Assembly: GCA_963662545.2 (NCBI GenBank)
Contig: CAXXLL010000003.1
Span: forward strand, 224,001 to 288,000
Direction of reading: 5' to 3'
DNA: 64,000 bases
Source of the DNA: Gammaproteobacteria bacterium
GTDB taxonomy: Bacteria > Pseudomonadota > Gammaproteobacteria > Ga0077536
Part shown: one piece after another, positions 7,400 through 35,613 of the stretch
Numbering within the stretch: the first letter of the stretch is position 1
How the letters are laid out: each line of letters begins with the position of its first letter
Translations under genes and position numbers: made by a program
The notes under the pieces: model-generated
The model's database searches: none
Seen by the model: the letters and a program-made list of their open reading frames with translations, nothing else
Told to the model about the DNA's origin: nothing

Positions 7400-8611
7400 C
7401 TATTTACGCTTGACCACCAGATCGACGTTTGTGCCGCGGTCGAGCCGTGTCGCCATCAGCCTGAACACGATCCGAAATGGCTCGGTGAGAAACCAATGAA
7501 AGGGAGCACGAATCATTTTGAGTTCCAACTGCATTTCGCGGAACTTCTTATCCGATTTATGGAGCGCCAAATCCCGTGCAAGAAGTTTGTCGTTCCACAT
7601 TCGGGCGTGCAACCGAACCTGCTCTACGGTGCTCTCCATTTCATGTACGCGAATTTTCAACGCCTCGAGTTGCGTATCGAAGGCGAATACACCATCGACT
7701 GGAACGATGTCATAGACTTCACGCGCAAAAGCCGCCAAATCGAACAGGGGCTCAACCGTTCCCGTGTCCGTATTCACCAGCCTCAGCTCCGCCGTCTTCA
7801 GATCGATCTCCTCGTCGACGATCGTGTTTTTGCTGCGTGATACCCTGCGTTTCTCGCTTATCCCGACTACGATGCGATCGCCCAGGCGTGTAATGCCGCG
7901 TGTGTAACCGCCGATCCGAATATCCTTGACGACCTGCCAGGCTCCGTCATCAGCGCGTTCACAGACGTAAACCTTCTCGTCACCGGATTCCGCAAAATAG
8001 AGTTTGCCGTCGAGGATCGTGGGGCTGTGCGGTTGACGAAGCCGCTCGCGAATCGGCGCAAACGGGTCGACGTAGAACAGTCGACCTTTCATTCCCCAGC
8101 TTCCGTCGCCCGTTTTGGGCCCGAAACAGGTCGCTATCAGCCCGTCTTCGGCGGCCGCGATCCCGTTGAGATGAATTTCGTCCGCATCTTGGCCGACCCC
8201 TGGATAGCGCCAATATAATTCCTGTTCGCCCAGTTCCCTGCCGTTTACGGAAACCCGGTGTATTTCATTTGTACCGGTACTCGTTATATAGATGTGGTTC
8301 TGGTAGAAAGCAATTGAATGTGGATCTCTTACGCCCTCCAATTGGATAACTGAAATCGGCTCTGGCGACACAAGGTCCAAAATGGCGAGCAGTGGTGTTT
8401 CCATACTTTGGGTGCATAAGGCGATCGCATCACCGATCCGGCAAACGCCGGCGGTGCCACCGAGATCACGTGTACCCTCATCCGGGATCCAGTCGAGGTT
8501 GACCCACGTGATCCGTCCAGTGCCCGTTTCCAGTATGCACGTAGAGTGCAACAGCGAAGATTTCTGGTTACAGAATGTTAGAAGGACCGTGTCTCTGTTA
8601 GGCTCTTTCAC
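7400..8611 (-). CDS. Beta-propeller protein (DUF4915/TIGR03032-like) with coiled-coil tail
   Basis: Repeated blade motifs DPHSI, HLNGI, QPHSP and GYTRGI. Confidence 0.6.
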   Translation of the reverse strand: MKEPNRDTVLLTFCNQKSSLLHSTCILETGTGRITWVNLDWIPDEGTRDLGGTAGVCRIGDAIALCTQSMETPLLAILDLVSPEPISVIQLEGVRDPHSIAFYQNHIYITSTGTNEIHRVSVNGRELGEQELYWRYPGVGQDADEIHLNGIAAAEDGLIATCFGPKTGDGSWGMKGRLFYVDPFAPIRERLRQPHSPTILDGKLYFAESGDEKVYVCERADDGAWQVVKDIRIGGYTRGITRLGDRIVVGISEKRRVSRSKNTIVDEEIDLKTAELRLVNTDTGTVEPLFDLAAFAREVYDIVPVDGVFAFDTQLEALKIRVHEMESTVEQVRLHARMWNDKLLARDLALHKSDKKFREMQLELKMIRAPFHWFLTEPFRIVFRLMATRLDRGTNVDLVVKRK

Positions 8612-8682: not shown

Positions 8683-9411
8683 TCATGCACCGGTGACGCG
8701 AATGCCGTAGGTTTCTGAAAGTTCCAGTGCCCGATTCCTTGCGGATGCCACGAGCGCGTAGTCCCTTTCGTGCAAATCTCTGAACCATTCATACGTTTCA
8801 TCCGACACGTTGTAGGCCGCACGCGGGTAGCGCCGCGCAGGGTTCACATTGGTTTCGGAAATTTCAGGCATTTCGCCGGATATACCAAGGATCTTGCCCA
8901 ACAACTCGATTCCGGCTTCGTACCATTCGGTGATCCCAACAAAATCGAAATCGTCGATATCGCACTCCCCGATGAAGACGCGTTGTAAATTCTGAATCGC
9001 GGGGTCTCTTGCGAATCCTTCGAAATTCATCCCCTGCGCCGCGACCCTTTGATAAACCGGGTGATCCGGATTAGGCAAACGGCACCAGTAGTTGAAATGG
9101 GATATCGCCCGCTGAAGCGGATCACGCAACCACACCAGCTTGAGGGTTTCGTCGCATACGCTATCGTACTTTACGGCACTGAAATGTCCGTGTACGCAAT
9201 TCACGAGACGCTCTGACCCATCTACTTTGACGTAGCAATGCTTATCTCTCTCGATGATCGTGGGCGCCGAATTCTTGCCAATGATCGGAATGTCATCGTA
9301 GTCAGCGTAATACTCATCATTGAATATATTGTGCAGAAGGCGATAGAAGCTTGATCCACCAGTCTTCGGTATGTGTACGGAAATAACAAGCATCGGCACG
9401 CGCGGGGCCAA
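8683..9411 (-). CDS. Sulfotransferase family 2
   Basis: 5'-PSB HIPKTGGSS and 3'-PB LRDPLQRAIS. Confidence 0.85.
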   Translation of the reverse strand: MAPRVPMLVISVHIPKTGGSSFYRLLHNIFNDEYYADYDDIPIIGKNSAPTIIERDKHCYVKVDGSERLVNCVHGHFSAVKYDSVCDETLKLVWLRDPLQRAISHFNYWCRLPNPDHPVYQRVAAQGMNFEGFARDPAIQNLQRVFIGECDIDDFDFVGITEWYEAGIELLGKILGISGEMPEISETNVNPARRYPRAAYNVSDETYEWFRDLHERDYALVASARNRALELSETYGIRVTGA

Positions 9412-10812
9412 CTACGGCGCTGCGACACTCAGCTCTGGCATGTAACAGAAATCTACGACGCCCGTGGAAAACACCACGCTTCGCTTATTAACCCGGAACG
9501 CAAGCGCATCAATGATCCGGTGTAGGCTTCGCGCTTCGTGGTTTCGAACGTGGCAATTCATAAAATACACGCCTACGTTTAGTGCGCATTGAAATTCGAA
9601 GGAAATGACCGCTTGCTGTCCATTATGGAACTTGATTCCAGGGGATTCGGAATCAGGATATTGACCTCCGCCCAGATTAATTCCAGATTTCGTTCCAATC
9701 ATCGTATAAAAGTGGACGCTACCGGGATCTTCATCAAAAACGACATCGAAACAGAATCGGTAACGCTCCCCATTTACGAGACAGTTTACCTGCTGTCCGG
9801 ATTTATCCAGCAGTCGGGGATTGCTAATTTCAGCTCCGCTGGGGCGATAAGAAATTGTACTTTTAGACACGAGGTGCGGATCGAAATCTGGTTTGTTGAA
9901 TTTGAAATCGGATTCCGTAAGATCGGAAATGGCATCGCTAAAACTTGGAGTCAAGGACCGCAATTCCCGGCCTTGGACATCCATGTTCTCTACAGCCGGA
10001 CCACTATCGTCGTGCACTGGCGATGCAGCATCCTTTTCACGGATTTCGGCGCAGATTTCGTCATTATATTCGGACGGAGAGTTGATCAACTTTTGGTATA
10101 GACCTATTGCCTCCTTTGGGTTGCCCGTATACAGCCGCTGACCCGAGTGCAGTAGCACTGCGCGGTCGCAAAGTTCGACAACGGCTTTTGGTGAATGAGA
10201 AACGAAAAGGATGGTTCCGTCGCCGCCCCTGATCTGCTCAATGCGCGCATGACACTTGCGCTTGAAAGCCTCGTCACCGACGGCGAGTACTTCGTCCACC
10301 AAAAGAATGTCCGGTTCAACACTAATCGCCACGGCGAACGCCAAACGCGCGTACATGCCACTCGAGTACGTCTTTACCGGTTGATTGATAAAATCTCCAA
10401 TGTCAGCGAACGCTTCAATTTCGGCGAATCTTTCGTTGATCTCGCCCTCCTCATATCCTCGTATCGCGCCGCTCACAAATACGTTTTCGCGCCCTGTAAA
10501 GTGCGGATTGAACCCCGCCCCGAGTTCGAGCAAGGCCGATACCCGGCCGCTGACCATGATTTCGCCTTGCGTTTGAGTTAGGTTTCCGCAGACCAACTGC
10601 AATAGTGTCGATTTACCCGATCCGTTGGCGCCGATGACGCCTACGGTCTCACCCCGCCGGACTTCCAGTGAAACGTCGCGGAGCGCCCAGAAATCGCGGT
10701 AATACTTGCGGCGGCCGCGTAGTAACATCTGTTTGAGCCGGTCTTTCGGCTTGCCGAATAAGGCATAGGCCTTGCTTAGGTCGGTGGCACGGATGGCGAC
10801 TTCAGACGACAT
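9412..10812 (-). CDS. wzt: Polysaccharide ABC exporter ATPase with C-terminal Wzt_C domain
   Basis: Walker A GANGSGKST, YSSGM signature, LLVDEVLAVGD and a C-terminal carbohydrate-binding-type extension. Confidence 0.93.
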   Translation of the reverse strand: MSSEVAIRATDLSKAYALFGKPKDRLKQMLLRGRRKYYRDFWALRDVSLEVRRGETVGVIGANGSGKSTLLQLVCGNLTQTQGEIMVSGRVSALLELGAGFNPHFTGRENVFVSGAIRGYEEGEINERFAEIEAFADIGDFINQPVKTYSSGMYARLAFAVAISVEPDILLVDEVLAVGDEAFKRKCHARIEQIRGGDGTILFVSHSPKAVVELCDRAVLLHSGQRLYTGNPKEAIGLYQKLINSPSEYNDEICAEIREKDAASPVHDDSGPAVENMDVQGRELRSLTPSFSDAISDLTESDFKFNKPDFDPHLVSKSTISYRPSGAEISNPRLLDKSGQQVNCLVNGERYRFCFDVVFDEDPGSVHFYTMIGTKSGINLGGGQYPDSESPGIKFHNGQQAVISFEFQCALNVGVYFMNCHVRNHEARSLHRIIDALAFRVNKRSVVFSTGVVDFCYMPELSVAAP

Positions 10813-11707
10813 CCGCAAATCCCCGCTTGGTTATGGTAAACCACGAGAGCCCTAGCCAAGCGATAACTACGGCGACGACGAGATATACGAACAGGCCCGA
10901 AAAATCGGGCGACAGACCGCGCAGCATAGCGTTACGTGTTTGCTCGATGATGTATGCGAGTGGATTCAAGTACATTAGGCCCTGCAGCTTTTCCGGCAGC
11001 GCCGTCACGGGATAAAAAATGGGGCTCGCAAACAGCATTACCGGGACTATAACCCCCACGATCTGACGAGCATCCATAATGAATACACCGACCGACGACA
11101 GAAACCACATAGCGCCTATCGTCATCAGTGCCAGGGGAAGCAATATGACCGGCAGCCACAAGACGGTTAAGTGGGGCACTCCAACCAGTAGCGAATACGC
11201 GAGAACTAACACGACGCCACTGACTATCGTGTTAAACAGTGCACTGCCCAGGACGACCCAGGGCAAGATCTCCAACGGGAAAACGATACGCTTGATGTAC
11301 GGGACGTTCTCGAGCATCAATCCCGGTGCACGGCTGATACACTCCGAAAACAATTGGAATACAAGAAGCCCGGCGAACAGAACAAGCGCGAATTCCCCGC
11401 GGTTACCCACGCCGACAGCCCACCGCGCCTGGAAGACCACGCTGAATACGAATGTATAGACCGATAACATCAACACAGGCGTCAAGAAAGACCAGGCTAG
11501 GCCAAATATGGATCCGCGGTACCGGCCCACGATTTCGCGCTTGACGAGTCGGTGGATCAACCGACGATCGTTCCACAGCGTCAGGAAGACGTAATGCGGC
11601 CCGTTTTGACCGAAGGAAAGCTGCGGGGGCTCCGATGTGCGGATAACCGTCGGCCGCTGCGAATCTCCCGATACGCGTTGAGCTTCGCTACCTTCCGGCA
11701 GCATCAT
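10802..11707 (-). CDS. wzm: Polysaccharide ABC exporter permease
   Basis: RYRGSIFGLAW, VFPLEILP, PIFYP, NPL, KRGFADVV; overlaps the wzt start. Confidence 0.93.
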   Translation of the reverse strand: MMLPEGSEAQRVSGDSQRPTVIRTSEPPQLSFGQNGPHYVFLTLWNDRRLIHRLVKREIVGRYRGSIFGLAWSFLTPVLMLSVYTFVFSVVFQARWAVGVGNRGEFALVLFAGLLVFQLFSECISRAPGLMLENVPYIKRIVFPLEILPWVVLGSALFNTIVSGVVLVLAYSLLVGVPHLTVLWLPVILLPLALMTIGAMWFLSSVGVFIMDARQIVGVIVPVMLFASPIFYPVTALPEKLQGLMYLNPLAYIIEQTRNAMLRGLSPDFSGLFVYLVVAVVIAWLGLSWFTITKRGFADVV

Positions 11708-12466: not shown

Positions 12467-13981
12467 ATGGTCAAGATCCTTGGAATATCGGCGAGTCTTC
12501 GTAACGCTCGATTCGGCGCCGGCGGCACCAAGCTGACAGACGATCTCGCGGCGTTGGAATCGCGTGAAAGTTTTGTGCAATTCCTGTCGGATCAAACGAG
12601 GATCCTCCTCGAGGAGTTTTTTGACCAAGGACGAAGCGAAGGTCTCGACTTCGAATCGATGTACCGGCGGCTCCGCGGTTCTTCCGGAGATCGGGGTCTA
12701 AGCAACTCGGAAGGTACGCTTGCCGCCGCCCTCTGGGGTGCCAGCCGGGAAGGTGCCGAAATCCGCTACCTGGGACTCGGTCATCATTTTCGCGGTGACG
12801 GTTCGGTCGCCAACATCGATGCGGTGCGTGACGCGATCCTGTGGGCCGACGGCATTATCCTCTCAGGACCCGTTTACTTCGGCGACCGTGGCTCGCTCGC
12901 GCAATCCCTAGTCGAGTTTCTCCACGCGGACGCGCGGTGTCGTGCCCATATCCGCAACAAGGTCTACGGCGGCGTGACCGTCGGCGCCAAACGCAATGGG
13001 GGTCAGGAAACGACACTTATTTATCAGCTCGTCGACATGACTAATCTCGGCATGCTCGCGGTCGGCAACGGCAGCGAGACTACCTCGCAGTACGGGGGAA
13101 CTGCCGTCGCGGGGGATGTTGGCACGATCCATCTGGACGACTATGGTATAGAAACCTCGATTAGCACAGGCGCTCGCGTCGCCCGGGTCACGAAACTTTC
13201 CGCCCTGGGAATTGCTGCTCGCATCTCCGATCCCGTACGCATTGGCGTGTGGTTGCTACAAGACAGTCCCGACCATCGTGGACGTGAACTTATCAGCGAA
13301 CTCACAACGTCATGGAGCAGCGAGGGCGATAACGTCGAGTTCGAGATTCTCGATGGCCCGGCGGAACCGATTCACCGATGCATCGCATGCGACATTTGTC
13401 CGATCGACGTCGGGCCACCGGAGGAGTACCGCTGCATTATTAAGAGCAAGGATGATCTGTTCAAAAAGCGACATGTTCAACTGGCGTCCGTTGACGCTCT
13501 GCTGATCGCGGCCTACAGCCCGCGTGATCGGAGGGACATACTCAGCGTTTACCAGACATTTATTGAACGCACGCGCTATTTGCGGAGGGATCATTACCTG
13601 CTGGGGGATCTCTTCGTTGCGCCGCTGGTAATCAGCGAGATCGGCGCCAACCAAAACTTGCACATCCGGATCCTGACGTCCATGGTCCGGCACCACACGA
13701 TCCTTCACCATGCCCTGATCGGCTTTGAACAGGATCGACGTCTGCTCAACCAGCAGGATCTCGAGGAGGGTGGGAAACACTTCGCCAAGCTTGCAGTTCA
13801 AATTACCGCAGGCCGGCTGCGGCAGGCGCAGGCCGCGGGAAAGGACGTCTATCAACCAGTCGGTTATGTGGTGAGCGAAGAGAAGCTTAAAGCGGATCGA
13901 GAAGACGGGAAATTGGAGAAAGCACTCGAAGCGCGCGATGCAGTACGCAAGCGCGATAGGCGACGAATCATTGCCGGATAA
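12467..13981 (+). CDS. Tandem flavodoxin-fold (FMN reductase / iron-sulfur flavoprotein-like) protein
   Basis: Domain 1: KILGISASLR, SNSE, ADGIILSGPVYFG, AKRNGGQETT. Domain 2: CIACDICP...YRC Cys cluster. Confidence 0.75.
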   Translation: MVKILGISASLRNARFGAGGTKLTDDLAALESRESFVQFLSDQTRILLEEFFDQGRSEGLDFESMYRRLRGSSGDRGLSNSEGTLAAALWGASREGAEIRYLGLGHHFRGDGSVANIDAVRDAILWADGIILSGPVYFGDRGSLAQSLVEFLHADARCRAHIRNKVYGGVTVGAKRNGGQETTLIYQLVDMTNLGMLAVGNGSETTSQYGGTAVAGDVGTIHLDDYGIETSISTGARVARVTKLSALGIAARISDPVRIGVWLLQDSPDHRGRELISELTTSWSSEGDNVEFEILDGPAEPIHRCIACDICPIDVGPPEEYRCIIKSKDDLFKKRHVQLASVDALLIAAYSPRDRRDILSVYQTFIERTRYLRRDHYLLGDLFVAPLVISEIGANQNLHIRILTSMVRHHTILHHALIGFEQDRRLLNQQDLEEGGKHFAKLAVQITAGRLRQAQAAGKDVYQPVGYVVSEEKLKADREDGKLEKALEARDAVRKRDRRRIIAG

Positions 13982-14015
13982 GCGCAGCCACAGCGCCGCC
14001 GCCCGATTTCTTCCC

Positions 14016-14144
14016 GTGAGTGCCCGCAACATACTGATGGCGGTAGCATCGGTCGCCGGATGGTTCGTGCTCGAAGGTGCCGTCCTGGTCGCGCTCTACC
14101 TCGCCTCGGTCGACCTCGAGATGTTCCGGTATGCCGGTTTTTGA
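14016..14144 (+). CDS. DltX-like single-TM peptide with C-terminal aromatic/Tyr motif
   Basis: One TM helix ending in FRYAGF-stop, resembling the DltX / AlgI C-terminal hexapeptide. Overlaps the next gene. Alternative start TTG 13971. Confidence 0.7.
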   Translation: MSARNILMAVASVAGWFVLEGAVLVALYLASVDLEMFRYAGF

Positions 14145-15207
14145 GGCTCGCGACGCCGGACAGGGGATCGCTCCGATCCTTGCTGCCGCCGCACTGTGGG
14201 CACTCCTCTGTTGGTGGTTAAACCAGAGTATATCGCTCGACCTGATACGCGGCACGCCGATGGGTCCATGGCTGGCAGACATCAGGGATGACCACACGCG
14301 CATCGCGCACCGACTGGCCAATATGAACTACGAGGAGCCGATGGTACTCATCGTGGGCGGTTCGTCGTTTCGCGAAGCATTTGACTCGGACTGGATTCTA
14401 GAGCGCAGAATGCGGGAAGTGCTCGGTCGCGGAATCAATGTGGAAAAGCTGTGCAGCGCCTCGCAATCGCTGTTTGAAAGTTTCGCGATACTTCTCGAAG
14501 CGATGCGGGACAACCGGCTTGCACCCGGGAGCGTGGCTATAATCGGAATGAATCCGCATCGATACGCATCGGGCCGTGAAGAGGTAATCGCGAAGGTGCG
14601 TGCGCCGTTGATTCCTTTCCTCGATCACCGTGGCGCCGCGGAGCGGGTGATCGAGAACGAATCGATTCCCGGTAGATTTCGCCTGCTGACGCAGAGGGGA
14701 GTTGCGCGGCACTGGATCGAGCAACGTCTCCGCAACAGCCGCAACTGGCTGGACGGCGATTGGCTTGCTCCCCTCCCGTATCTCGAATATGCCTGGCCGG
14801 ACCGCCCCCTGCCGACGAACGAAAAGCATAAACACGCCCATGCCGTAGCATCGTGGCTGGGGAAGGATTTCGAAGGAAGCCACGATTTCGCCCAAAACGT
14901 TGCGCGCCAACTCGTTGCAAGTTTGCGAGATGAAGATATCGAGGTTGTCATGCTTCAATTGCCGCGAGATTCGCGCATCGTGGATGTTTACCAACCGTAT
15001 GCCGAAACGTACGAAACGCATCTGGCCGAACTCTACGAACTAGGCGCACGTCCGTGGGATCTGCGGACACTGGGCTTGGACGACGACGCGTTTTCGGACC
15101 TGTTTCACGTACGGCCTGGCGCGCCCCGCGATGCCCTGACCACCGTATTCATCCAACGCTTGACCCGGCTCCTTGGCGGGTCTGAAGGGACTCCCCTTGG
15201 ACGCTGA
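14131..15207 (+). CDS. DltD/AlgJ-like SGNH-fold acyltransferase, N-terminally membrane-anchored
   Basis: TM helix, block I GGSS, C-terminal DLFH (DxxH); operonic with ACP and MBOAT. Confidence 0.7.
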   Translation: MPVFEARDAGQGIAPILAAAALWALLCWWLNQSISLDLIRGTPMGPWLADIRDDHTRIAHRLANMNYEEPMVLIVGGSSFREAFDSDWILERRMREVLGRGINVEKLCSASQSLFESFAILLEAMRDNRLAPGSVAIIGMNPHRYASGREEVIAKVRAPLIPFLDHRGAAERVIENESIPGRFRLLTQRGVARHWIEQRLRNSRNWLDGDWLAPLPYLEYAWPDRPLPTNEKHKHAHAVASWLGKDFEGSHDFAQNVARQLVASLRDEDIEVVMLQLPRDSRIVDVYQPYAETYETHLAELYELGARPWDLRTLGLDDDAFSDLFHVRPGAPRDALTTVFIQRLTRLLGGSEGTPLGR

Positions 15208-15457
15208 TACGATTCAAAATGAGCTGCGAAAGTTTCTGGTCGATGAACTCGGTATCGAAGAGCGGGAGCTCGACCCGGCCAGCCGCTTGATCACCACCGG
15301 AATCATCGATTCCATGGATATGCTGATGCTTGTTGCATTTGTGGAGAATAATTTCGGTCTCACGATCAAAGCACTCGACGTCAGCGTCGAGGAGTTCGAT
15401 AGTCTCGATAGACTGGCAGAGTTCGTTCTGCATCGTGCCACCGCATCTCTGGGCTGA
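15197..15457 (+). CDS. Acyl carrier protein, DltC-like
   Basis: GIIDSMDML phosphopantetheine motif, acidic, about 86 aa. TTG start overlaps the upstream stop. Confidence 0.9.
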   Translation: MDADTIQNELRKFLVDELGIEERELDPASRLITTGIIDSMDMLMLVAFVENNFGLTIKALDVSVEEFDSLDRLAEFVLHRATASLG

Positions 15458-15488
15458 ACAGTTGCAAACCGGGAGCGTCAACATAGCG

Positions 15489-17165
15489 GTGGATGCAGAA
15501 ACAAAGCCGTCGGCGCCGCAATCGAACACATTGCGGGCGTGGAGTCTCATTGCGCTGCTGTTCATCGTCATCGTGCTACTCGAAGGATTGACTGGCGACC
15601 GCTCCGAACTGCGTTTCCAGGGAGGCAAACCCTCCTTCCCGCTGATCCTGTCGGCAACCGGCGCTCCTCTGGAGATCCATTTCAAATCTGGTCCACGCGA
15701 GGAACTGGTTATTGCGGAGGGCATAGGTACGACGCGACTGCAGCGCGATCCCAGCCGCGCAAAGGACGCGGGGTACGAAGTGCGCAGCCTGGACGACGGT
15801 ACGGTCCGCACGCGTCTTTCCTTTCGACGGTCTCCTACTCAGAAGACGGTTTCACTGCGGCCGCCGTCCGGCATCGAAGCCATGCGCCTCGATTCCTTCG
15901 ACCTTCGAGTGGTCAAATCCACGCGCGCGACTATCGGCGGTTACGAAGCGCTCGGCTGGCTGGTGGTTGTCTGCTTTGCGTGCATTCCTGTCGTCTGCCT
16001 GTTAGGGCGTTCCCCCGTGTTCAGTCAATGGGTGTTTGCTGCCTCCACGCTGACCTGGATGTTGTTTTTTCAGCCGGCGTTCGCGCTTGCGCTGCTCGCT
16101 TTTCTAGTCTTCGTGCACCGGCTTGGGCTCGAGTGTGCACGCAATCATATAACAGGAAAAGGAGCTTCCGCGTGGAACCTACTGCGGCTCGGTGGCGGCA
16201 TGGCGCTGGCATTTCTACTGGTTGGAAAGTACGGCGCCGATGCCGTCGCCGAGCTCTTCGCAAACCCCGGTGGCCTTGCGCTTGCAATGCCACTTGGCAT
16301 TTCATACTTCGTCATCCGAGTTCTCGATACACAGTTGCGCTGGTATCGGGGTGACCTCGTTGACGTAAGCCTGCGCGAATTTCTCGCCTATGTGCTTTTT
16401 CCCGCAACCGTTGCGGCAGGTCCTATTGCGACGCTTCCGGGGTTCCGGAAGGGTTGGCTGGGCCCGGTCAGCCTGTCGGAAATCGGGCCTCCGATACGTC
16501 GTATCCTGCAGGGGATAGCCAAAAAAATCGTATTGGTCCAGATCTTTCTCGGAGGCATGCTGTTCGGCATCGGTCCGGTTGCATTCGATCCCGGGCTCAT
16601 GATTCAGGTGCTGTGGGATCCGATGGGCGTCACCTCCGGACGCATTCTGATGCTGCCATTTCTGATGCTTCTTTATTCCTATCTTGATTTTTCCGCTTAT
16701 AGTGACATAGCGATCGGATTCAGCCGGCTTCTCGGCGTACGAATGGTGGAAAACTTCAACTGGCCAATTCTGGCCAGTGACCTCCAGGAATACTGGCGTC
16801 GATGGCACATGTCGCTATCGGGCTGGTGTCAGCGCAACATCTTCATGCCAGCTACACTGGCGACGCGCAACCAGTTCGTTCCGGCTTATCTCACGATGCT
16901 GGCGGTCGGGCTCTGGCACGCGTTCGCCTTACCTTGGTTTCTATGGGCCTTGCACCATGCGACCGGTCTGATCGTGTTGAGTAAATGGCGGCACCGCCGC
17001 GGGCGCAAACGCGAACTATCGCGCGGGCGAATATGCGCCGGAGTGGGGCTCACCCTGACGTTCGCGGCGGCCGGCTATTCCTTTGCATTCATCGGCGACA
17101 CCGCAACCGCGCTGGCCATATACGGGCGCTTCTGGATCACACTCGTGACACTCGGGCAAATTTAA
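15489..17165 (+). CDS. MBOAT O-acyltransferase (DltB/AlgI-like) with extra N-terminal domain
   Basis: PLGISYF, DFSAYSDIAIG, ENFNWP, YWRRWHMSLS and GLWH (catalytic His). No C-terminal FIYxxF motif. Confidence 0.9.
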   Translation: MDAETKPSAPQSNTLRAWSLIALLFIVIVLLEGLTGDRSELRFQGGKPSFPLILSATGAPLEIHFKSGPREELVIAEGIGTTRLQRDPSRAKDAGYEVRSLDDGTVRTRLSFRRSPTQKTVSLRPPSGIEAMRLDSFDLRVVKSTRATIGGYEALGWLVVVCFACIPVVCLLGRSPVFSQWVFAASTLTWMLFFQPAFALALLAFLVFVHRLGLECARNHITGKGASAWNLLRLGGGMALAFLLVGKYGADAVAELFANPGGLALAMPLGISYFVIRVLDTQLRWYRGDLVDVSLREFLAYVLFPATVAAGPIATLPGFRKGWLGPVSLSEIGPPIRRILQGIAKKIVLVQIFLGGMLFGIGPVAFDPGLMIQVLWDPMGVTSGRILMLPFLMLLYSYLDFSAYSDIAIGFSRLLGVRMVENFNWPILASDLQEYWRRWHMSLSGWCQRNIFMPATLATRNQFVPAYLTMLAVGLWHAFALPWFLWALHHATGLIVLSKWRHRRGRKRELSRGRICAGVGLTLTFAAAGYSFAFIGDTATALAIYGRFWITLVTLGQI

Positions 17166-17181
17166 CGAATCGGCGCCGTCG

Positions 17182-17595
17182 ATGAAGCAAATAATTGCTT
17201 GTGTGATGATTCTGGGCGCGGTCGGTCCCACTTGCGTATCCGCCCGGGCGCTCGATGTCTACATGATTCAGGAAATGCGTATCTGTCGTGTAATCGTCGA
17301 AGCCAGGCCACTTCGGGCCAGCGACTCTGATAGCGATCACCTCGCCCGGTTGCGTTTGGACGTCGTCGACGCCGTGCGCTCAATGCCTCCCGCGGCCTGT
17401 CTACCTGGTACGCGCAGGCTGGCCCACGTGGTCTTGCCGCTCGCCTGGCGTGACAACGGCCTACCTCACTGGCACCGCGTCCGCATTCTCGCGACCTTCA
17501 AGGTACAGCCTGAAACTTGGGCGGCCCTGCTGGAAGTCGCGGCCCAACCGCGGCCGCTGGCGGACGCCCTGCCATGGGCTGACGATCGGTACTGA
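17182..17595 (+). CDS. Hypothetical exported protein
   Basis: Signal-peptide-like N-terminus; TGATG coupling to the next gene. Confidence 0.5.
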   Translation: MKQIIACVMILGAVGPTCVSARALDVYMIQEMRICRVIVEARPLRASDSDSDHLARLRLDVVDAVRSMPPAACLPGTRRLAHVVLPLAWRDNGLPHWHRVRILATFKVQPETWAALLEVAAQPRPLADALPWADDRY

Positions 17596-19055
17596 TGGCG
17601 AAGGACGGGCTTTCCAGGTACCTGCTGGAACTGTTACGTCGACGCGCGGACGAAGATGATTATGCGATTCGGGATCTTGAACGCCAATACAGCGCGACGG
17701 AACTCTTACGCGCGGCCGAGTCGAGCGCAGCTGCGCTTGCGGAATGCGGCCTCGGCCCCGGAGACACGGTCGCCGTAGCTAGCCACAGGGGCCTGGATTT
17801 CGTTGCCGATGCATTGGGTGTCTGGCATTGCGGTGGCGTGCTGGTGCCGTTCGACACGCACTGGAGTGCGCGCCATCAGGAAACAGTGCGGCGCAAATCC
17901 GCCGCAAGCTTTTCAATCGGGTTCGAACTCGACGATGCGGTCCGCGTCCACCCTGGTGACGGTGCAACGAAACCCGTCGTTGATTCCAACGAGTCGGCAA
18001 ACTCCCGCTCCGTCATTCTTTTCACGAGTGGCTCGACCGGAGAGCCGAAGGGCGTGGCCTTAAGCGGTACAGCACTGCTTGGTAACGCACAGGCGGCGGT
18101 GCAACGACTCGGGTACCGCGCAGGCGCGCGTTTCGCGATCGCCACACCGTTCCATTTTACCAGCGCCCTGTGCCATGCGCTCGCCTGCCTGTTAACCGGT
18201 GCGCCTCTAAGCTTGCGCGAGGACGGTCCGGCGCCGGCCGACTTCATCGAATGGCTGGTTGTGGAAGGGGCCGACGGTTTCGGTGGTGCACCTATACAGC
18301 TTGGCTGGCTGGCAGACGGCGGATTGGAGAAGCTTACGGCGATGCGCTGGTTGATGTCGTCCGGGGACCGTCTTCCGGAGAAAACGATCCGCGATCTTCT
18401 GGCGATTCGTCCGGCTGTCGACGTCCATACCGTCTACGGGCTTACCGAATTGGGCGGGCGTTTTTGTACGCTCCCTCCGCACGAATTACCCGAGCATGCG
18501 GGCACCGTCGGACGCCCCATTGAAGGTCTGAGCCTGCGCCTACGCGACGAGCACGGGGTCGAAATGGGGCCCGGAGAGACGGGTGAGGTGTACGCATCCG
18601 GGCGTTACATGATGGAGGAATATGTCGGCGAGCCGGAGGCCACCCGCGCCGCCCTCTCTGCAGGCGAACTGCGCACCGGGGATTTGGGCGAACTCGACGA
18701 TGCCGGACGGCTACGATTACACGGTCGCAGCGATGAGGTCATCAAGGTCGCAGGACAAAAGGTCAGCCTGGTTTCCGTCGAGGATGCGATACGCGAACTC
18801 GGCCTATTCCGGGATTTTTCCGTTCTCCCGTACGCGCATCCCGTGCTCGGGACAACCCCGGCTTTGTTCTACGTCGGACGCGAGGGCGAGGCTTTGCAAA
18901 AGGGCGCGTTGCTCCGTCAGCTTCGCAAGCGCCTGCCCGGTACTCACTTGCCACGAACTCTGATCTCCGTCGACGAAATCCCGCGAACCGGTTCAGGCAA
19001 GGTAGACCGCGCCGCGCTCGTGCAATTCGCGCCACCGGTTTCCGAAAGAAGCTGA
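17595..19055 (+). CDS. Class I adenylate-forming (AMP-binding) ligase, in the DltA position
   Basis: FTSGSTGEPKG, YGLTE, RTGDLG, PRTGSGK. Confidence 0.92.
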   Translation: MAKDGLSRYLLELLRRRADEDDYAIRDLERQYSATELLRAAESSAAALAECGLGPGDTVAVASHRGLDFVADALGVWHCGGVLVPFDTHWSARHQETVRRKSAASFSIGFELDDAVRVHPGDGATKPVVDSNESANSRSVILFTSGSTGEPKGVALSGTALLGNAQAAVQRLGYRAGARFAIATPFHFTSALCHALACLLTGAPLSLREDGPAPADFIEWLVVEGADGFGGAPIQLGWLADGGLEKLTAMRWLMSSGDRLPEKTIRDLLAIRPAVDVHTVYGLTELGGRFCTLPPHELPEHAGTVGRPIEGLSLRLRDEHGVEMGPGETGEVYASGRYMMEEYVGEPEATRAALSAGELRTGDLGELDDAGRLRLHGRSDEVIKVAGQKVSLVSVEDAIRELGLFRDFSVLPYAHPVLGTTPALFYVGREGEALQKGALLRQLRKRLPGTHLPRTLISVDEIPRTGSGKVDRAALVQFAPPVSERS

Positions 19056-22809: not shown

Positions 22810-23670
22810 TTAAGTCCGATGTTTCCGCTTTAAGCGTTGCACACTCGCACGATAGTAGTTCAGGAAGACCGTTTCCCATTTCACGTATCCTCCATATATT
22901 TTGTTCCAACGTCGAAAGTTCGCCAGATCCGCCTCATAGTCGTTGCCGTATGCGGCGATTGACGCGGCGAAGAGAGCCTGCGCGAATTGATGGAGTTCCA
23001 GATCTAACGCCTGAGTTTGATTGATCGCAGCGACGACTGCCGCGGTCAGATCCGCTCGATGGGCACTCTGCTTGGTGACATTGAAATTTTCGTAGAATGC
23101 GGTCCGCCATCCGAAGTGCTTTTTCCATAGAAGCATAGCGCCGTCAACCTCTTCACTCAGCCCAACAATCGCAAAGCCATTTTCCAGTGTGTGCTTTGCT
23201 TTCTCCAGATCCTCCGCGCCTAATTCGCCGAACGGTTTTTCGTTAACTGCGCCACGATCGCCGCTGAACAGCCTGGTCTGAAAGTTGTCAATTTCTACAG
23301 TCATGCCACTGAGCAGAAATTGTTCGAAACTCGTATTTTCATCAGCCAGGCGACTATACAGATAGTGTCCAGGCGTGGTCCGCGCATATCGGTAGTAAGA
23401 GCGCATTCTGTCGGCGGGATTCCTGAGAAGTGTGACGTATCGGCTCTCACCGGAAATTGCTTCATGAATCCCATAACCGAAATGCCCCGAAATCGCTCGG
23501 GCGCCGAACGTTGCTGCATCGAACTCCTGCAGTTCCTTCAAGCTTGTCTCGGCTCTGCTCCAGGCATATCGAAGGAATAGCGGTTCATACTTACGTCGCA
23601 GCATTCTAGCGACCGTGCTGCCCGCGGCTTTGGGCACATGCAGGAAAATTATGGTTTTGTTTTCAGGCAT
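22810..23670 (-). CDS. Sulfotransferase family 2
   Basis: FLHVPKAAGST, LRNPADRMRSYY. Confidence 0.87.
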   Translation of the reverse strand: MPENKTIIFLHVPKAAGSTVARMLRRKYEPLFLRYAWSRAETSLKELQEFDAATFGARAISGHFGYGIHEAISGESRYVTLLRNPADRMRSYYRYARTTPGHYLYSRLADENTSFEQFLLSGMTVEIDNFQTRLFSGDRGAVNEKPFGELGAEDLEKAKHTLENGFAIVGLSEEVDGAMLLWKKHFGWRTAFYENFNVTKQSAHRADLTAAVVAAINQTQALDLELHQFAQALFAASIAAYGNDYEADLANFRRWNKIYGGYVKWETVFLNYYRASVQRLKRKHRT

Positions 23671-23676
23671 CTACTT

Positions 23677-25148
23677 TTAATTCGCCACCGCCACGCGCGG
23701 CGCGATTCGTTTAACGGTCTCGATGTCGCCGCTGAAGATAAGGACCGGCCAGTCGCCCCCCCCATACATCTTTAAGTGCCTTTCATTGGATACGCCTCCT
23801 AGAGAATAATTCGAGGACGGGATCAGAGAGCGATAGACCTCCGCGGTTACCGCCGCGATCTTCGGCCAGGTGAAACGTTTGCGCGCTTGCGCGGCATTGC
23901 CGATATGGGCGATCTTCTCGTGCGAATTGAGAAACTCGATGATGGTTCTGGAAAGCGCATTGGCTTCGACGGCTTTGAGAATGATGACGTCACGACCGCT
24001 GATCAGTACGCCCGGTCCGAAGGTGTCGATATTCGATATGCTCAGCACGGGATTCCCCGTGAGCATCGCTTCCCTGCCGGCGATGCCTAGCGAATTCTTG
24101 CCGCCGTCCGCCTGACCGAACCACATGGCCTCGAGTTCCGCCAACGCATGGAAGACCGGGACGTGCATGTGTGGCGGTACGCCGGCAAAGATCATCGTGC
24201 CCTCGAGTCCGAGCTGTCTTACCAGATTGACAGGCCGCTGGTCGCAGACGGCGCCGACGACGACCACTACAACCTCCGGGGAGCGAACACATACCGCCGG
24301 CATGGCACGGATCAGATCCGGACGAGACGGTTGCGCAGCGTATGGACGTGACCTAGCGAGAGAATGACGCGGCGCGCGGCGAGGCCGAATTGTTCCACGA
24401 TCCGGCGCTCGACGCCGGCACCGGAGCGATCCGGAAGGCTGCTGCCGTAAGGTACGAAGTGCCCGTCGTCGCGACCGAAGGCTTCGGCGAGATACGCTTG
24501 TATATTCACGCCCGGGTAGATCACGGCGTCCGCGTGCCGTACTGCGGCGTGCCGCAGAAAGCCGCGATCAGCCGAATACAACAGCAGATTGAAAGCGCGA
24601 ATACTGTGCTTGATGACCGTGTGCAGGGTCAAGGCCACGGTCAGACCGAGCGAACGCTTCAATGACATCCCGGCAAACGCCATGTCGAACATATGATTGT
24701 GAAGGTGCAAAAGATCGATGTCATGACGCTTGATGATGGCTTCCATACGACGCAGCTTGGCCGGCCAGAACGTCCAGTTCAGCCACGGGAAATTCATTGC
24801 AATCGACATTCTGGGCAAGCGTGGCACATGCACGCCGTAGATCTCGAAACCGTCCAAGACCTCGTAATCGGGGATCGATGGATCGACCTGCGCCATGATC
24901 ACCACCACATGATGTCCGAGCGATGCCAGCTCGCGCGAAAATCCGAGGATCTGGGTCGCCGAACCGGTCGTAATGCGGTGAACCAGATTGGTGAGCAAGG
25001 CGATCCGGTGCGGCTGGCCCGCCCTTGTCGGCCTGTTCGTTCCCGGCTGCATAAGCGCCGCTGGATCCGGCGCATCGAGCGTATCGGTGGACGTCGCCTG
25101 CGATGCGGGCTTGCGGACCAGGGTCATGATGAGTTCATAACTGGACAT
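23677..25148 (-). pseudogene. Glycosyltransferase family 4, frameshifted near 24310 and degenerate
   Basis: The N-terminal half (GHHVVVI, HLHNH) and C-terminal half (SLGIAGREAMLTGNPV, FTWPKIA) lie in different frames. Confidence 0.75.
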
Positions 25149-25170
25149 GCCGGCACTGAATTCTACAGAA

Positions 25171-25668
25171 TCAGGTGAGGCGTTGTACCGCATCGCTACG
25201 CGCCACGAGCGCAACATGCCGACCCGCGACTTTCAGCAGCAGCGCGACGCGGTCGCGCCCTCTCAGCTCGGCCACGACGGCCTCATAGCCGGCGAGCGCC
25301 CCCTCGATGATCTCCACGCTGTCGCCGGGGACCAGCGCTTTCTGCATCACCTCGCAGACATCTTCAGCGCTGGCATGCGCCTTCAGTTCATCGATCCATG
25401 CATCCGGTACGCGCGCATACGCCGCGCCGAATCTAATCAGGCGCAACACGCCGACGGTCGATCGGATCGGCCCGAAATTGTCCACGTCCGGACTCAGCTG
25501 GACGAATAAGTACCCCGGAAACAGCGGTTCGATGCGCTCGCTGCGCGGGCGGCGCACTCGCAGCCGCGGCAGCCAGGTGAGGTAGCCCTGGCGCTCTAGG
25601 TTCTCGCGCGCGACGGCTTCACGGCGTGCTTTGGTCTGCAGTAGATACCACTCGCGGGACACGCTCAC
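25171..25668 (-). CDS. rfaH: Transcription antiterminator RfaH
   Basis: WYLLQTKARREAVARENLERQGY, EPLFPGYLF, IRSTVGV and KOW motif GDSVEIIEGALAGYEAV. Confidence 0.9.
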   Translation of the reverse strand: MSVSREWYLLQTKARREAVARENLERQGYLTWLPRLRVRRPRSERIEPLFPGYLFVQLSPDVDNFGPIRSTVGVLRLIRFGAAYARVPDAWIDELKAHASAEDVCEVMQKALVPGDSVEIIEGALAGYEAVVAELRGRDRVALLLKVAGRHVALVARSDAVQRLT

Positions 25669-26708
25669 GGCCGGTCTCCCGCGGGTATTGAGAACGAAAA
25701 ATCACGCGCAAACTCGGACAGTGGAGCCGCTCGCTCCAGCACCCGTGCGATGTCGCGTTCCAGCGAAACGGCAACCTCATTCGTAAAATGCAGCGGATCC
25801 CAATAGTTGGTGTCCGCACGCGTCAGTGGAGATATGTGCATAAAATCCAGTACCGCCACATTATCGAAATTCGGCAACAGCGCTGCAAGCCGGCCCTTGC
25901 ACTCCCTCAGATTAGCGACCCTGCCGGCGACATAATGACTGTGCAGCGGTGGAAACAACAGAATGATTCGCGTCGGTGCCGGCGTTTCGTTCAAGACATC
26001 GCGCAAGACATCGAGCAGTGGGTAATCCCACCCGGGTTGTGTCAAGGTGGGCGCGATCTGTACGTCAGCGACCGGGAGCTGCGCGGTCCCGTAAAGACGC
26101 TCCCTGACCACCGCGAGGTCGTAGGATCCGAAATCAGCCGTGAAATCGCGGTACCCGTCGAGACGATATTTTGGCTCGCGCCTGCCTGTCAAAAGCTCCA
26201 ACATCCGCACCGCGTTCTCCAGCGCCTTGTCGTTGAACAGGTACAGCAGGTCGTTCCAGCGATTCTCGTCGTACATCCATTCGGGAAACGCGCGGAACGT
26301 GTATTGCTTAATCGTGTCGGCACGGTTACACCAAGTCTCGTCGATGCCGAATACGAGGTAGCGCGCGTCGGGATGGTGGCGCACAAATACCTCGTGTATC
26401 CGCGTCTGTTCGTAGGCGGTGGCTGAATTCATCGCGAGATTGACAAACCGGGCGTCGAGCAATTGGCCGAGCCGCGCGGGATCGAGCAGGCGCACGGTTG
26501 AGGTCCCGATGATGGCCCCGTCGAAGTCCGGATCGCGTGCCAGCGCCGGGTAGGCAAAGCGTTGATTCGTGCTGACCGGTGCGCGGTTCAACGCAGGCGA
26601 AAACAGCACGTTCTGGTACGGATCGAGAATCAGGATGAAGGCGTATAGACAGACGCCGATCAGCAGGGTGGCGAACAAAACGAAGCGGGTGAACCGCGGC
26701 CAGGCCAT
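25665..26708 (-). CDS. SGNH-like periplasmic partner of the MBOAT acyltransferase
   Basis: N-terminal TM ending LDPY, IGTST block I, WDPLHF (DxxH). Confidence 0.7.
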   Translation of the reverse strand: MAWPRFTRFVLFATLLIGVCLYAFILILDPYQNVLFSPALNRAPVSTNQRFAYPALARDPDFDGAIIGTSTVRLLDPARLGQLLDARFVNLAMNSATAYEQTRIHEVFVRHHPDARYLVFGIDETWCNRADTIKQYTFRAFPEWMYDENRWNDLLYLFNDKALENAVRMLELLTGRREPKYRLDGYRDFTADFGSYDLAVVRERLYGTAQLPVADVQIAPTLTQPGWDYPLLDVLRDVLNETPAPTRIILLFPPLHSHYVAGRVANLRECKGRLAALLPNFDNVAVLDFMHISPLTRADTNYWDPLHFTNEVAVSLERDIARVLERAAPLSEFARDFSFSIPAGDRP

Positions 26709-26765
26709 CGTCTAATTGAATGTCCCGCATGACAGGACGCTTTGTAGTTTAAAACGGAAAGTTTT

Positions 26766-26825
26766 ATTCGCCCGCAAGCGGGTTCCTACCCGGGCAATGC
26801 TGTAGGAGCCCGCGTGCGGGCGAAT
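26766..26825. repeat. Inverted doublet of GTAG-family REP-like palindromes
   Basis: attcgcccgcaagcgggttcctac ... gtaggagcccgcgtgcgggcgaat: two ~24-bp units in inverted orientation, each internally palindromic. Confidence 0.75.
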
Positions 26826-26856
26826 CGAGAGCGGTCTCGTAATTTGAAACACCTGC

Positions 26857-28233
26857 TTAGAACTGGAAGTAAATGAACTCGAGTCCGCGTCCCTGACCGA
26901 CGCGCATGATGGTCGCGATCATCAGCAGAGCGAGCGGTACGGCAACGAGACGGCGGGCGATCCACCTCATGCGAGACAGGTCGAAATTGGTCGGCCCTAG
27001 CAGCGCGAACCCGAGGCCGATTAAAACCAAGCGCCAAGCTTCGGTGTCCGTCTCGCCATCCCCGCCGAAGCCGAGCATGGCCGCGACGAGGTTCATCGCC
27101 ACGCCGAAATCCGCGGCCCGGAACAAGACCCATCCAATCACGACGAAGAACATGGTAATGGCCCAGCCCGCAAACGCCGGCATGCGCCACGGCGTCGCCA
27201 TCCACAGCCGATTGCAGCAAACCGCGAGGCCGTGCAATCCGCCCCAAGCGATGAAGGTCCAGCCGGCGCCGTGCCACAAGCCGCACAACAGCATCGTGAA
27301 CACCGCGACGGCGACCATGCGCGCGGCGCCCTGGCGACTGCCGCCCAGCGGGATGTAGACGTAGTCCCGCAGAAACCGCGACAAGCTCATGTGCCAACGG
27401 CGCCAGAATTCGCGAATGCTCTTTGCGCGATAGGGATTGTCGAAATTAAGCGGCAGGTCGAATGCGAAGATCGCGGCGAGGCCGAGCGCCATGTCGGAAT
27501 AGCTGGAAAAGTCGAAATAGAGTTGCAGCGAATATGCCAGGGCTGCCTGCCATGCGCCGTCAAAGCCGAGCGCGGTGCCGGCCGCCACCATGGAAAAGCC
27601 TGCATCGGCGATCGGCGCGAGTTCGTCGGCGAAAAACACCTTCTTGACCAGGCCCAGGATGAAGAGCACGAGGCCGCGCGCGATGCGTTCGACCCCGCCG
27701 TCACCCAGCGGGCGGGCGTCGAACTGTGGGATCAATTCGTTGTGGCGCACGATGGGTCCGGCTATCAGCTGTGGGAAAAAGCTCACGAAACAGGCGTACT
27801 CCAGCAGGCCGTAGACCGGTGCCTCACCCCGCTTGAGATCTATGAGGTAGGAGATCTGCTGGAAGGTAAAAAAACTGATCCCCAGTGGAAGAATGATGTT
27901 GAACGCCTGGAATTCGATGCCCGCGAAGCTCAGTACGGATTCAGCAAAGAAATTCGTGTACTTGAAGAAACCGAGCAGTGCGAGATTGAAGGCAATGCCG
28001 CCGATCACGATGGCGCCGCGTTCGAACCGCGCGAACGCGCGCGCGACCAGCCAGTTCACGAGGATGGTCGCGACGAGCAAAGGCAGAAAGCGCACGTCCC
28101 ACCAGGCATAGAAAACCAGGGAGCCGGCCAGCAGCACGGCCAGCCGTAGCGATCGACGGCCGGCCACGGCGTAGTAGGCCGTCACCACCAAGGGCAAGAA
28201 TAGGAGAATGAAGAACTGCGATGAAAACAGCAT
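26857..28233 (-). CDS. MBOAT O-acyltransferase, AlgI-like
   Basis: MLFSS, PLGISFFTFQQISY, FPQLIAGPI, FWRRWHMSLS, GLWHGA and C-terminal FIYFQF. Confidence 0.95.
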   Translation of the reverse strand: MLFSSQFFILLFLPLVVTAYYAVAGRRSLRLAVLLAGSLVFYAWWDVRFLPLLVATILVNWLVARAFARFERGAIVIGGIAFNLALLGFFKYTNFFAESVLSFAGIEFQAFNIILPLGISFFTFQQISYLIDLKRGEAPVYGLLEYACFVSFFPQLIAGPIVRHNELIPQFDARPLGDGGVERIARGLVLFILGLVKKVFFADELAPIADAGFSMVAAGTALGFDGAWQAALAYSLQLYFDFSSYSDMALGLAAIFAFDLPLNFDNPYRAKSIREFWRRWHMSLSRFLRDYVYIPLGGSRQGAARMVAVAVFTMLLCGLWHGAGWTFIAWGGLHGLAVCCNRLWMATPWRMPAFAGWAITMFFVVIGWVLFRAADFGVAMNLVAAMLGFGGDGETDTEAWRLVLIGLGFALLGPTNFDLSRMRWIARRLVAVPLALLMIATIMRVGQGRGLEFIYFQF

Positions 28234-32780: not shown

Positions 32781-32923
32781 GCGTTCGCAACTTCCACGGT
32801 GTTCTGAGTGATGCCAGACTATTCATAAGATTCAATCTGTTCGGTTGACTCTGGTAGCTTGACACGTCCACTGAGTGCTACTACATTCCCACTCGTTGTG
32901 TGGGATCGAATGAGGGTACGACT

Positions 32924-35266: not shown

Positions 35267-35488
35267 ATGAACAGATTGTTGCGGCGACCCGAAGTCGAAT
35301 CGATCACCGGACTGTCGAGGGCGAGCATCTACGCCAAGATGCAGAAGGGCGAATTCCCCGCACCGGTGCGACTCGGCACCAACTCCGTAGCTTGGCGTGT
35401 AGTCGATATCGAGGCCTGGATTGAGTCCCTTCCTCCGGCGAGGTTTCACAAAGCCGGTTGTAGCGAATCCCGCAAAGCGGCGGAGTGA
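35267..35488 (+). CDS. alpA: AlpA-family regulator/excisionase
   Basis: LLRRPEVESITGLSRASIY...FPAPVRLG...VAW. Confidence 0.92.
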   Translation: MNRLLRRPEVESITGLSRASIYAKMQKGEFPAPVRLGTNSVAWRVVDIEAWIESLPPARFHKAGCSESRKAAE

Positions 35489-35613
35489 AGCGTGGAATGG
35501 GAGTTGTGCCCGGCCGCGGTGCCTTGGTATCGAGAGTTGTGTCGGCGGTGGGCGCTCTGGCGGCGTGCGTCTGCGGCGATCCGTCGGGCTGTTCACGCCC
35601 TCCGGTGTGCCGT

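Follow-up and report, generated by a model that had tools for sequence, protein, structure and literature searches.

A Dlt-like operon headed by a flavoprotein gene beside a polysaccharide exporter locus in a gammaproteobacterium

Introduction

In teichoic-acid D-alanylation, D-alanine bound to the carrier protein DltC is passed through DltB, a membrane-bound O-acyltransferase (MBOAT), to the invariant tyrosine of the FXYXXF motif in the microprotein DltX, from there to a serine of DltD, and then to the polymer (PMC12148441, in the parts drawn on here). Other MBOAT/SGNH systems, such as the diderm O-acetyltransferases PatA/PatB, AlgI/AlgJ/AlgX, and WssH/WssI, are described in the same parts of that source as carrying the hexapeptide on the MBOAT itself and using an acyl-CoA donor, with no carrier and no DltX-like microprotein. 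On this current account, as those parts give it, a carrier and a free DltX microprotein are peculiar to teichoic-acid D-alanylation. There are also dlt genes in the soft-rot Enterobacteria Dickeya and Pectobacterium, which are thought to modify lipopolysaccharide (LPS) (PMC5541007, likewise in part). Here, we describe an operon with a Dlt-like set of genes in a 64,000-nucleotide stretch of a Gammaproteobacteria bacterium genome (GCA_963662545.2, contig CAXXLL010000003.1, positions 224,001 to 288,000, forward strand). This whole stretch is “the window,” and positions are counted from its first letter.

On balance, we favor the view that the operon, at 12467-19055, encodes a carrier-dependent acyl relay of the Dlt type, made up of a supply module and a relay module, and that it likely acts on the glycan exported by the neighboring Wzm/Wzt transporter. 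Its gene content and order, its conserved motifs, the DltD-like fold of one product, and a synteny that crosses phyla and takes in the flavoprotein are what we observe directly.

Like DltXABCD of the Bacillota, the operon combines a ligase, a phosphopantetheinyl carrier, a tailless MBOAT, a one-helix microprotein with an FxYxxF motif, and an anchored SGNH protein with a Ser...DxxH arrangement. Unlike DltXABCD, it is orthologous by no curated model; its ligase lacks the amino-binding Asp; its MBOAT has an added N-terminal transmembrane (TM) helix and an extracytoplasmic domain of ~150 residues; its genes run in the order X-D-C-B-(orf)-A, with the flavoprotein gene first; and it sits in a Wzm/Wzt glycan locus of an LpxC-encoding diderm, not in a teichoic-acid locus. 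Since the curated Dlt models match its products below threshold or not at all, we regard it as Dlt by anatomy and not as a member of the dlt family.

With the PatA/PatB-AlgI-WssH type it shares an MBOAT with an SGNH partner and, going by the cited parts of PMC12148441, the acylation of an extracytoplasmic glycan by way of an acyl-Tyr, which for PatA was trapped by mass spectrometry; it differs in its separate microprotein, carrier, and ligase, and in an MBOAT that lacks the fused tail. The genes of Dickeya and Pectobacterium are likewise a Dlt-type system in a diderm, from which the operon is set apart, on the description in part of PMC5541007, by its non-orthology under curated models, its other kind of ligase, and its flavoprotein. 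Already known, then, are Dlt itself, dlt genes in a few diderms, and the fused-tail MBOAT/SGNH class (same two sources, in part). Our literature searches, of incomplete coverage, returned no carrier-fed microprotein relay that combines a long-form MBOAT, a ligase for an acid other than an amino acid, and a dedicated flavoprotein of the putative iron-sulfur (Fe-S) kind.

Gene content and conservation of the operon

Seven co-oriented, tightly packed open reading frames (ORFs) make up the operon on the plus strand (Table 1). Every one lies where the first-pass annotation of this DNA had placed it, which bears out both the gene set and its divergence from wzm/wzt, across a gap of 760 bp. The ATG of the SGNH gene (14131) falls within the last 14 nt of the microprotein gene, the carrier ORF opens before the SGNH gene has ended, and the ATG of the ligase gene overlaps the stop of a 137-residue ORF. 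The host genome encodes LpxC, and we therefore take the host to be a diderm. Scans for promoters (5 promoter-like sites vs. 2.9 expected) and terminators (7 terminator-like sites vs. 7.7 expected) stayed at chance level, and Rfam gave no match within the 760-bp leader.

To judge conservation, one genome per species was scanned for the MBOAT family, limited to two peptide patterns. This gave 38 loci, of which 21 have a long-form MBOAT, that is, one with the added N-terminal helix and domain in front of a DltB-sized core; 14 of these 21 are well flanked, with at least 5 kb on each side. In all 14, genes for a carrier, a ligase, an SGNH protein, and a microprotein with the tail F-[RK]-Y-x-x-F lie within 7 kb of the MBOAT. 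The cassette hosts include Gammaproteobacteria, Methylococcaceae, a tubeworm endosymbiont, Magnetococcus, Pseudodesulfovibrio (Desulfovibrionaceae), and Gemmatimonadaceae (Gemmatimonadota), as well as Rhodospirillales, Nevskiales, Alphaproteobacteria, and Acidimicrobiales.

The 137-residue ORF had been listed as an exported protein of the operon. Its hydrophobic N-terminus and its coding-like composition (GC at the three codon positions 0.70/0.49/0.69, like its neighbors) agree with this; its place in the gene set does not hold up, since a homologue was found in 0 of the 38 related loci. It has no Pfam or NCBIfam family, and a homologue search returned its own cluster only. Judged by these searches, it is outside the conserved cassette.

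The proposed membrane relay

The microprotein ends in ...EMFRYAGF. Its ORF spans 13938-14144, and translation likely starts at ATG 14037 (35 residues) or GTG 14016. Across an alignment of 22 microproteins, the hexapeptide at the C-terminus never varies at its F, Y, and F (22/22) and hardly varies at its R/K. Motif and architecture fit DltX (~50 residues, one TM helix); sequence comparison did not place it in the DltX family. A predicted complex of the MBOAT core (residues 165-568) with the microprotein scored 0.01 against a mark of 0.32, a value obtained with no controls that counts neither way.

Two of the related loci (our L022, 14712-14861, and L028, 20620-20769, both minus strand) also have 49-residue ORFs (...KKFWLLP...) ending in FIYTIF, a few kb from the cassette. 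These are small membrane peptides with an FxYxxF-type tail, and they are unrelated to the FRYxGF microproteins.

The operon MBOAT matches PF03062 (62.7 bits) and ends in ...VTLGQI, with no FxYxxF; a terminal FxYxxF is absent from all 23 members of its family, whose relatives in a word-based search are 520-580 residues long and 35-43% identical. A fused-tail MBOAT encoded 8 kb from the operon offers an internal contrast to this split design. H450 and H487 are invariant in our MBOAT alignment (A1), and the only sequence matches in the PDB are to DltB (6bug, 8jem; 92 bits), with the His of WHMSLS aligned. The N-terminal domain has no family match and no DltB counterpart; its role is perhaps to bind the acceptor. 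This part of the protein (residues ~1-165, encoded at 15462-15960) also holds a nearly invariant Cys (C118 in A1).

For the SGNH protein, a word-based homologue search found only the protein itself, and an exhaustive HMMER search found 117 distant relatives. G76, S78, P278, D323, and H326 are the sole invariant positions among 40 aligned relatives, 10 of which weakly match Lipase_GDSL_2. The GGS around S78 is block I, and D323-x-x-H326 is block V. The AlphaFold2 (AF2) model is confident (predicted local distance difference test, pLDDT, 93.2; predicted TM-score, pTM, 0.91), with an N-terminal helix spanning residues 13-33. When this model was compared with the PDB by Foldseek, the top 10 matches were all DltD (6pfx, 6o93, 3bma, 7dxm; E 3.6e-5 to 4.1e-4), with generic SGNH esterases and PatB ranked below. 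Going by fold and residues of the predicted structure, the protein thus appears to have the N-terminal anchor, the SGNH fold, and the Ser-His-Asp triad of a DltD.

The carrier passes the PP-binding cut-off (24.8 bits vs. 20.8) and has the IDSM serine; 17 of 17 cassette carriers share the Ser of LDS(M/I)D. We place its start at TTG 15197, downstream of a GAAGGGA stretch; the ORF opens at TTG 15173.

The relay proposed in the first-pass annotation is therefore supported by the presence of all five Dlt roles, the split MBOAT, the DltD-like fold, and the conserved synteny, and its chemical steps would follow those of Dlt by analogy.

The ligase and two types of cassette

The ligase has an AMP-binding domain (171 bits) and an AMP-binding_C domain in Pfam. 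Its NCBIfam matches are all below threshold. The first of them is to a model for long-chain fatty-acid-CoA ligases (199 bits); a generic amino-acid adenylation domain model gives 179 bits against a cut-off of 317, and the best 25 matches include no DltA model.

Adenylation (A) domains bind the alpha-amino group of their amino acid through the Asp in the F-D motif of A4. The window's ligase reads P-F-H-F-T-S at A4, with Phe or Thr aligned to the Asp of the F-D motif of LgrA. An Asp at this position occurs in 0 of 17 ligases (the window's and those of 16 long-form loci), and most of them read FHFTSAICHF. The Asp for the alpha-amino group that marks DltA, an enzyme specific for D-alanine, is thus absent from this protein, and the claim that it is acyl-CoA-ligase-like and no true DltA is borne out by its A4 motif. 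An alpha-amino acid is improbable as its substrate.

A second group of loci (L037-L050; Rhodobacteraceae, Phycisphaeraceae, Magnetococcales, and others) has a short-form MBOAT, of DltB size (~395 residues). With it come a carrier, a ligase, an SGNH-type protein, and a microprotein ending in FRYxGF or FRYQNF. Here, 10 of 11 ligases have the Asp of the F-D motif, and one passes the amino-acid adenylation model (334 bits vs. 317). The flavoprotein was found in 0 of 11 well-flanked short-form loci. From the distribution of the Asp and of the flavoprotein, we distinguish two types of cassette: a presumed amino-acid type, without the flavoprotein, and one with a non-Asp ligase and the flavoprotein, to which the window belongs. 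The short-form cassette is probably an aminoacyl Dlt-like system of diderms. An unusual acyl group, tied to the flavoprotein, had been suspected at first sight, and the co-occurrence of non-Asp ligases with the flavoprotein lends this support at the level of sequence.

Where the locus or genome has a flavoprotein, the ligase has the Cys of the A4 region (..AICH..) in 10 of 12 cases, and where it has none, a Ser in 2 of 2; with so few sequences, and rows that are kin, we treat this association as a lead only.

The flavoprotein

Residues 79-202 of the flavoprotein match FMN_red above its cut-off (42.9 bits), and the only sequence match in the PDB is WrbA (E 1.7e-4). The AF2 model (pLDDT 78.6) has a second alpha/beta domain. 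Because Foldseek ranks flavodoxin 2ark, WrbA, ArsH, and PnpB at the top for this model, we assign the protein as a predicted flavodoxin-fold oxidoreductase without a specific solved counterpart. Four Cys of the second domain (C305, C308, C311, and C323; C-x2-C-x2-C-x11-C) are invariant in 14 aligned homologues, as are GAKRNGGQET and PVYFGDR. This Cys motif resembles the compact one that holds [4Fe-4S] in iron-sulfur flavoproteins of the Isf type, and the candidate cofactors are flavin mononucleotide (FMN) and a putative [4Fe-4S] cluster. A search of the ESM Atlas returned only clusters named “flavodoxin family / NAD(P)H-dependent oxidoreductase,” and literature searches of incomplete coverage gave no description of the protein's function.

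A lack of synteny of the flavoprotein in homologous loci had been named beforehand as one outcome that would speak against the idea, and this test did not refute it. The gene is present in 11 of the 14 well-flanked long-form loci, with products 46-54% identical to the window's; ligase and MBOAT are less conserved.

A metagenome search from the flavoprotein, of which the best 80 of 275 relatives were kept, widens the picture. A ligase or carrier is nearby in 44 of the 80 loci, 23 of which also have MBOAT-side genes. When loci are sorted by context, with the count among the 27 loci with at least 3 kb on each side given in parentheses, ligase or carrier plus MBOAT-side genes account for 23/80 (9/27), ligase or carrier only for 18/80 (4/27), an enolase-superfamily protein and/or a PylC-like ATP-grasp ligase for 22/80 (10/27), and mixed contexts for 6/80 (3/27); nothing was nearby in 11/80, mostly short contigs (1/27). 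The enolase/ATP-grasp context sits in NeuB/DegT/CMP-transferase loci, which serve nonulosonic acid synthesis.

We built a tree of 92 flavoproteins, dropping from the 80 metagenome rows 2 with fewer than 430 residues. The window's protein falls in a clade of 55 rows (SH-aLRT support 100); ligase, carrier, or MBOAT-side genes accompany 52 of them, and the other 3 have nothing nearby. In its sister clade of 33 rows (SH-aLRT 97), the enolase/ATP-grasp context accounts for 21 rows and both contexts together for 4, whereas 8 have nothing nearby. Outside both clades lie 4 further ligase-context rows. Tree and metagenome contexts together indicate that the flavoprotein belongs to the acid-activating side and not to the membrane relay; its absence from some cassettes likewise implies that the relay itself does not need it. 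What the window contributes here is one flavoprotein family with two sister clades and two activation routes. The trio of flavoprotein, enolase-type protein, and ATP-grasp ligase is like the window's set in its two-domain, putatively Fe-S flavoprotein family, its carboxylate-activating neighbor, and its surface-glycan loci; it is unlike it in belonging to the sister clade, in using an ATP-grasp enzyme instead of an ANL-family ligase with a carrier, and in having no membrane relay.

Two fusions are of help here. Beside the flavoprotein in NeuB/DegT loci, L057 (9541-12303, plus strand) has a ligase fused to Antibiotic_NAT, the aminoglycoside 3-N-acetyltransferase family, and L072 (13070-14917, plus strand) a ligase fused to a PP-binding domain. 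Both suggest a cytoplasmic amino-sugar N-acylation fed by the same supply module; the position of the L057 fusion next to the flavoprotein is the reason to think that this module also feeds a cytoplasmic sugar acyltransferase.

Proposed route

The route that we infer for the chemical steps, the acyl group, the acceptor, and the substrate of the flavoprotein begins in the cytoplasm. There, the ligase would adenylate a carboxylic acid, probably one that is not an alpha-amino acid, and load it as a thioester onto the phosphopantetheine arm of the carrier. Through a redox step, the flavoprotein, with FMN and a putative [4Fe-4S] cluster, may make or tailor either the acid or the acyl group once it is bound to the carrier. 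The MBOAT would then take the acyl group from the carrier and lead it through its conserved His funnel to Tyr32 in the F-R-Y-A-G-F tail of the microprotein, from which it would move to Ser78 of the membrane-anchored DltD-like SGNH protein. This protein would esterify a glycan at the periplasmic face, most likely the neighboring Wzm/Wzt polysaccharide.

The operon and its relatives in several phyla show that other bacteria, too, make wide use of the split design with a carrier, probably to transfer another acyl group. The conserved, linked flavoprotein, putatively of the Fe-S kind, points to an unexplored surface-glycan chemistry, for which one ligase, one carrier, and one flavoprotein provide a handle. 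Surface decorations of such a kind affect recognition by phages, the immune system, and antimicrobial peptides.

A broader proposal, which we offer tentatively and hold to be less probable than the relay itself, is that Fe-S flavoprotein, ANL ligase, and carrier form a phylum-spanning module that makes a redox-tailored non-amino acid, a glycan substituent not yet known. Delivery would be interchangeable, by a Dlt-type Tyr relay or by a fused cytoplasmic N-acyltransferase (L057), and the sister flavoprotein clade would serve the ATP-grasp/enolase route in nonulosonic-acid loci. If so, this would be a new family of surface-glycan decoration chemistry, and MBOAT relays that depend on a carrier and a microprotein would prove to be widespread beyond teichoic-acid D-alanylation.

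Points against the proposed relay, and other explanations

It is important to set out the findings that weigh against our reading. No relevant (DltX-type) Pfam family was found in any of the 22 microproteins at E <= 10. The SGNH protein has no Pfam or NCBIfam family and no match to a DltD model, TM-scores of its model against DltD are only 0.37-0.46, and its family profile found no DltD among PDB sequences at E <= 1, so that the link to DltD comes from the comparison of folds. On the NCBIfam equivalog for DltB, whose cut-off is 375 bits, the operon MBOAT reaches 131. With 157 bits, the fused-tail MBOAT of the window outscores it, which means that the model does not discriminate, and DltB orthology on the basis of this match was rejected. 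A candidate alternative acceptor site is a half-conserved Y-x-x-F-W that lies 12-20 residues from the C-terminal end of the MBOAT; its Tyr is present in 20 of 23 sequences. The top solved relatives of the ligase are amino-acid-activating A domains of nonribosomal peptide synthetases (NRPS; LgrA, 143 bits), ahead of DltA (3e7w, 90 bits), and for this reason its substrate could be a beta- or otherwise unusual amino acid. A search for the cassette MBOAT in 40 relatives of the host genome found only generic MBOATs (~30% identity). Across the related loci, wzm/wzt are not regular neighbors, with few loci and weak wzt matches only; the acceptor is consequently a guess from the window's own locus. 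Finally, the flavoprotein is missing from 3 of the 14 loci; it is encoded elsewhere in one of these genomes and absent from two, which are metagenome-assembled genomes whose completeness is not established.

How far do these points favor something else? The kinship of the ligase to NRPS adenylation domains would suit an ordinary dlt operon that moved into a diderm and D-alanylates or aminoacylates LPS or another anionic polymer, lowering the surface charge, as is reported for Dickeya and Pectobacterium. We think this improbable: the cassette ligases have no A4 Asp, which the sister cassette has in nearly every case, and DltA is outside the best NCBIfam matches and trails LgrA in the PDB; the carrier reaches only 18.7 bits on the DltC equivalog model, with its cut-off of 68; no DltX or DltD family was matched; and the N-terminal domain of the MBOAT is absent from DltB. 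It is somewhat easier to imagine, and still unlikely, that the relay works as proposed on another acceptor, be it lipid A-core, a periplasmic glucan, peptidoglycan, a lipid, or a protein. The scarcity of wzm/wzt homologues in other loci speaks for this, as do the top NCBIfam match of the carrier, the ornithine-lipid carrier model ACP_for_OlsHI (53.9 bits, below its cut-off of 130), and the lack of an assigned specificity for the long-form N-terminal domain. The operon nevertheless lies within a glycan locus, divergent from wzm/wzt; WbpM-type dehydratases occur in 6 of 21 related loci, and NeuB, DegT, and CMP-transferases are also found in such loci; and all characterized bacterial MBOAT/SGNH pairs named in the cited parts of PMC12148441 acylate glycan polymers.

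The flavoprotein might also leave the acyl group alone and serve as a general quinone or peroxide reductase of the WrbA/ArsH kind, or as an electron-transfer or regulatory partner. Its structural neighbors are generic NAD(P)H:quinone oxidoreductases, it is missing from the loci and cassette genomes given above, and its sister clade keeps company with unrelated enzymes (ATP-grasp, enolase-type). We nonetheless give this only a minor chance, given an identity of 46-56% across phyla, above that of ligase or MBOAT, a gene translationally packed at the head of the operon, and the contexts of its own clade (52 of 55 rows); in both clades, moreover, the gene adjoins that of a carboxylate-activating enzyme within glycan loci, an arrangement more in keeping with acid supply than with housekeeping. 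That the genes are chance neighbors or decayed, with no functional system, we hold to be very improbable. The cassette was not found in the 40 relatives searched, a mobile element lies 14 kb away, and the promoter and terminator scans stayed at chance level, but all frames are open with coupled starts, the catalytic residues are intact, and the gene set recurs in all 14 well-flanked loci, in several phyla.

Other features of the glycan locus

Table 1. Features of the window referred to in the text, in window positions
Feature	Position	Strand	Basis or remark
Two-domain flavodoxin-fold oxidoreductase, 504 aa	12467-13981	+	Pfam FMN_red
DltX-like membrane microprotein, 35 aa	14037-14144	+	C-terminal FRYAGF
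Membrane-anchored DltD-like SGNH-fold protein, 358 aa	14131-15207	+	Fold and residues
Acyl carrier protein	15197-15457 (ORF opens TTG 15173)	+	PP-binding, IDSM Ser
Long-form MBOAT	15462-17165 (ORF opens 15330)	+	PF03062
Orphan ORF, 137 aa, signal-peptide-like N-terminus	17182-17595	+	No family
ANL-family adenylating ligase, presumed acyl-carrier-protein ligase	17595-19055	+	AMP-binding and AMP-binding_C
wzm, polysaccharide ABC exporter	10802-11707	-	ABC2_membrane
wzt, polysaccharide ABC exporter	9412-10818	-	ABC_tran and Wzt_C
Second MBOAT, 458 aa, C-terminal FIYFQF	26857-28233	-	Own acyl-shuttle tail
347-aa protein after second MBOAT	25665-26708	-	N-terminal TM helix, GTS and DPLH, no Pfam family
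Two sulfotransferase-family genes and a DUF4915 gene	8683-9411, 22810-23670, 7400-8611	-	Wzm/Wzt locus
GT4-type glycosyltransferase, split	24312-25217, 23677-24303	-	Glyco_transf_4, Glycos_transf_1
Phage-type integrase	32900-34114	+	
DUF7146 and Toprim gene	35485-36570	+	
DUF3631 gene	36563-38215	+	
DDE transposase	52555-53901	-	

Around wzm/wzt there are glycosyltransferases, two sulfotransferases, and several methyltransferases. The fused-tail MBOAT and the protein encoded after it (25665-28233) are probably an acetyl-CoA-type MBOAT/SGNH-like pair of the same glycan locus. Since the Wzm/Wzt locus has at least five methyltransferase genes besides the sulfotransferase-family genes, sulfation and methylation of the glycan are probable in addition to its acylation. 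The two parts of the GT4-type glycosyltransferase are 8 nt apart, and the gene may have been split by a frameshift or a stop.

Directly after the glycan genes come the integrase, DUF7146/Toprim, and DUF3631 genes, and the transposase gene follows farther on. The GC content falls to 0.47-0.49 at 40-44 kb and at 48-50 kb, and at 58.5-61.3 kb genes for DegT and UDP-glucose dehydrogenase reappear. From these genes, the GC drops, and the resumption of glycan genes, a mobile element may interrupt or border the glycan locus.

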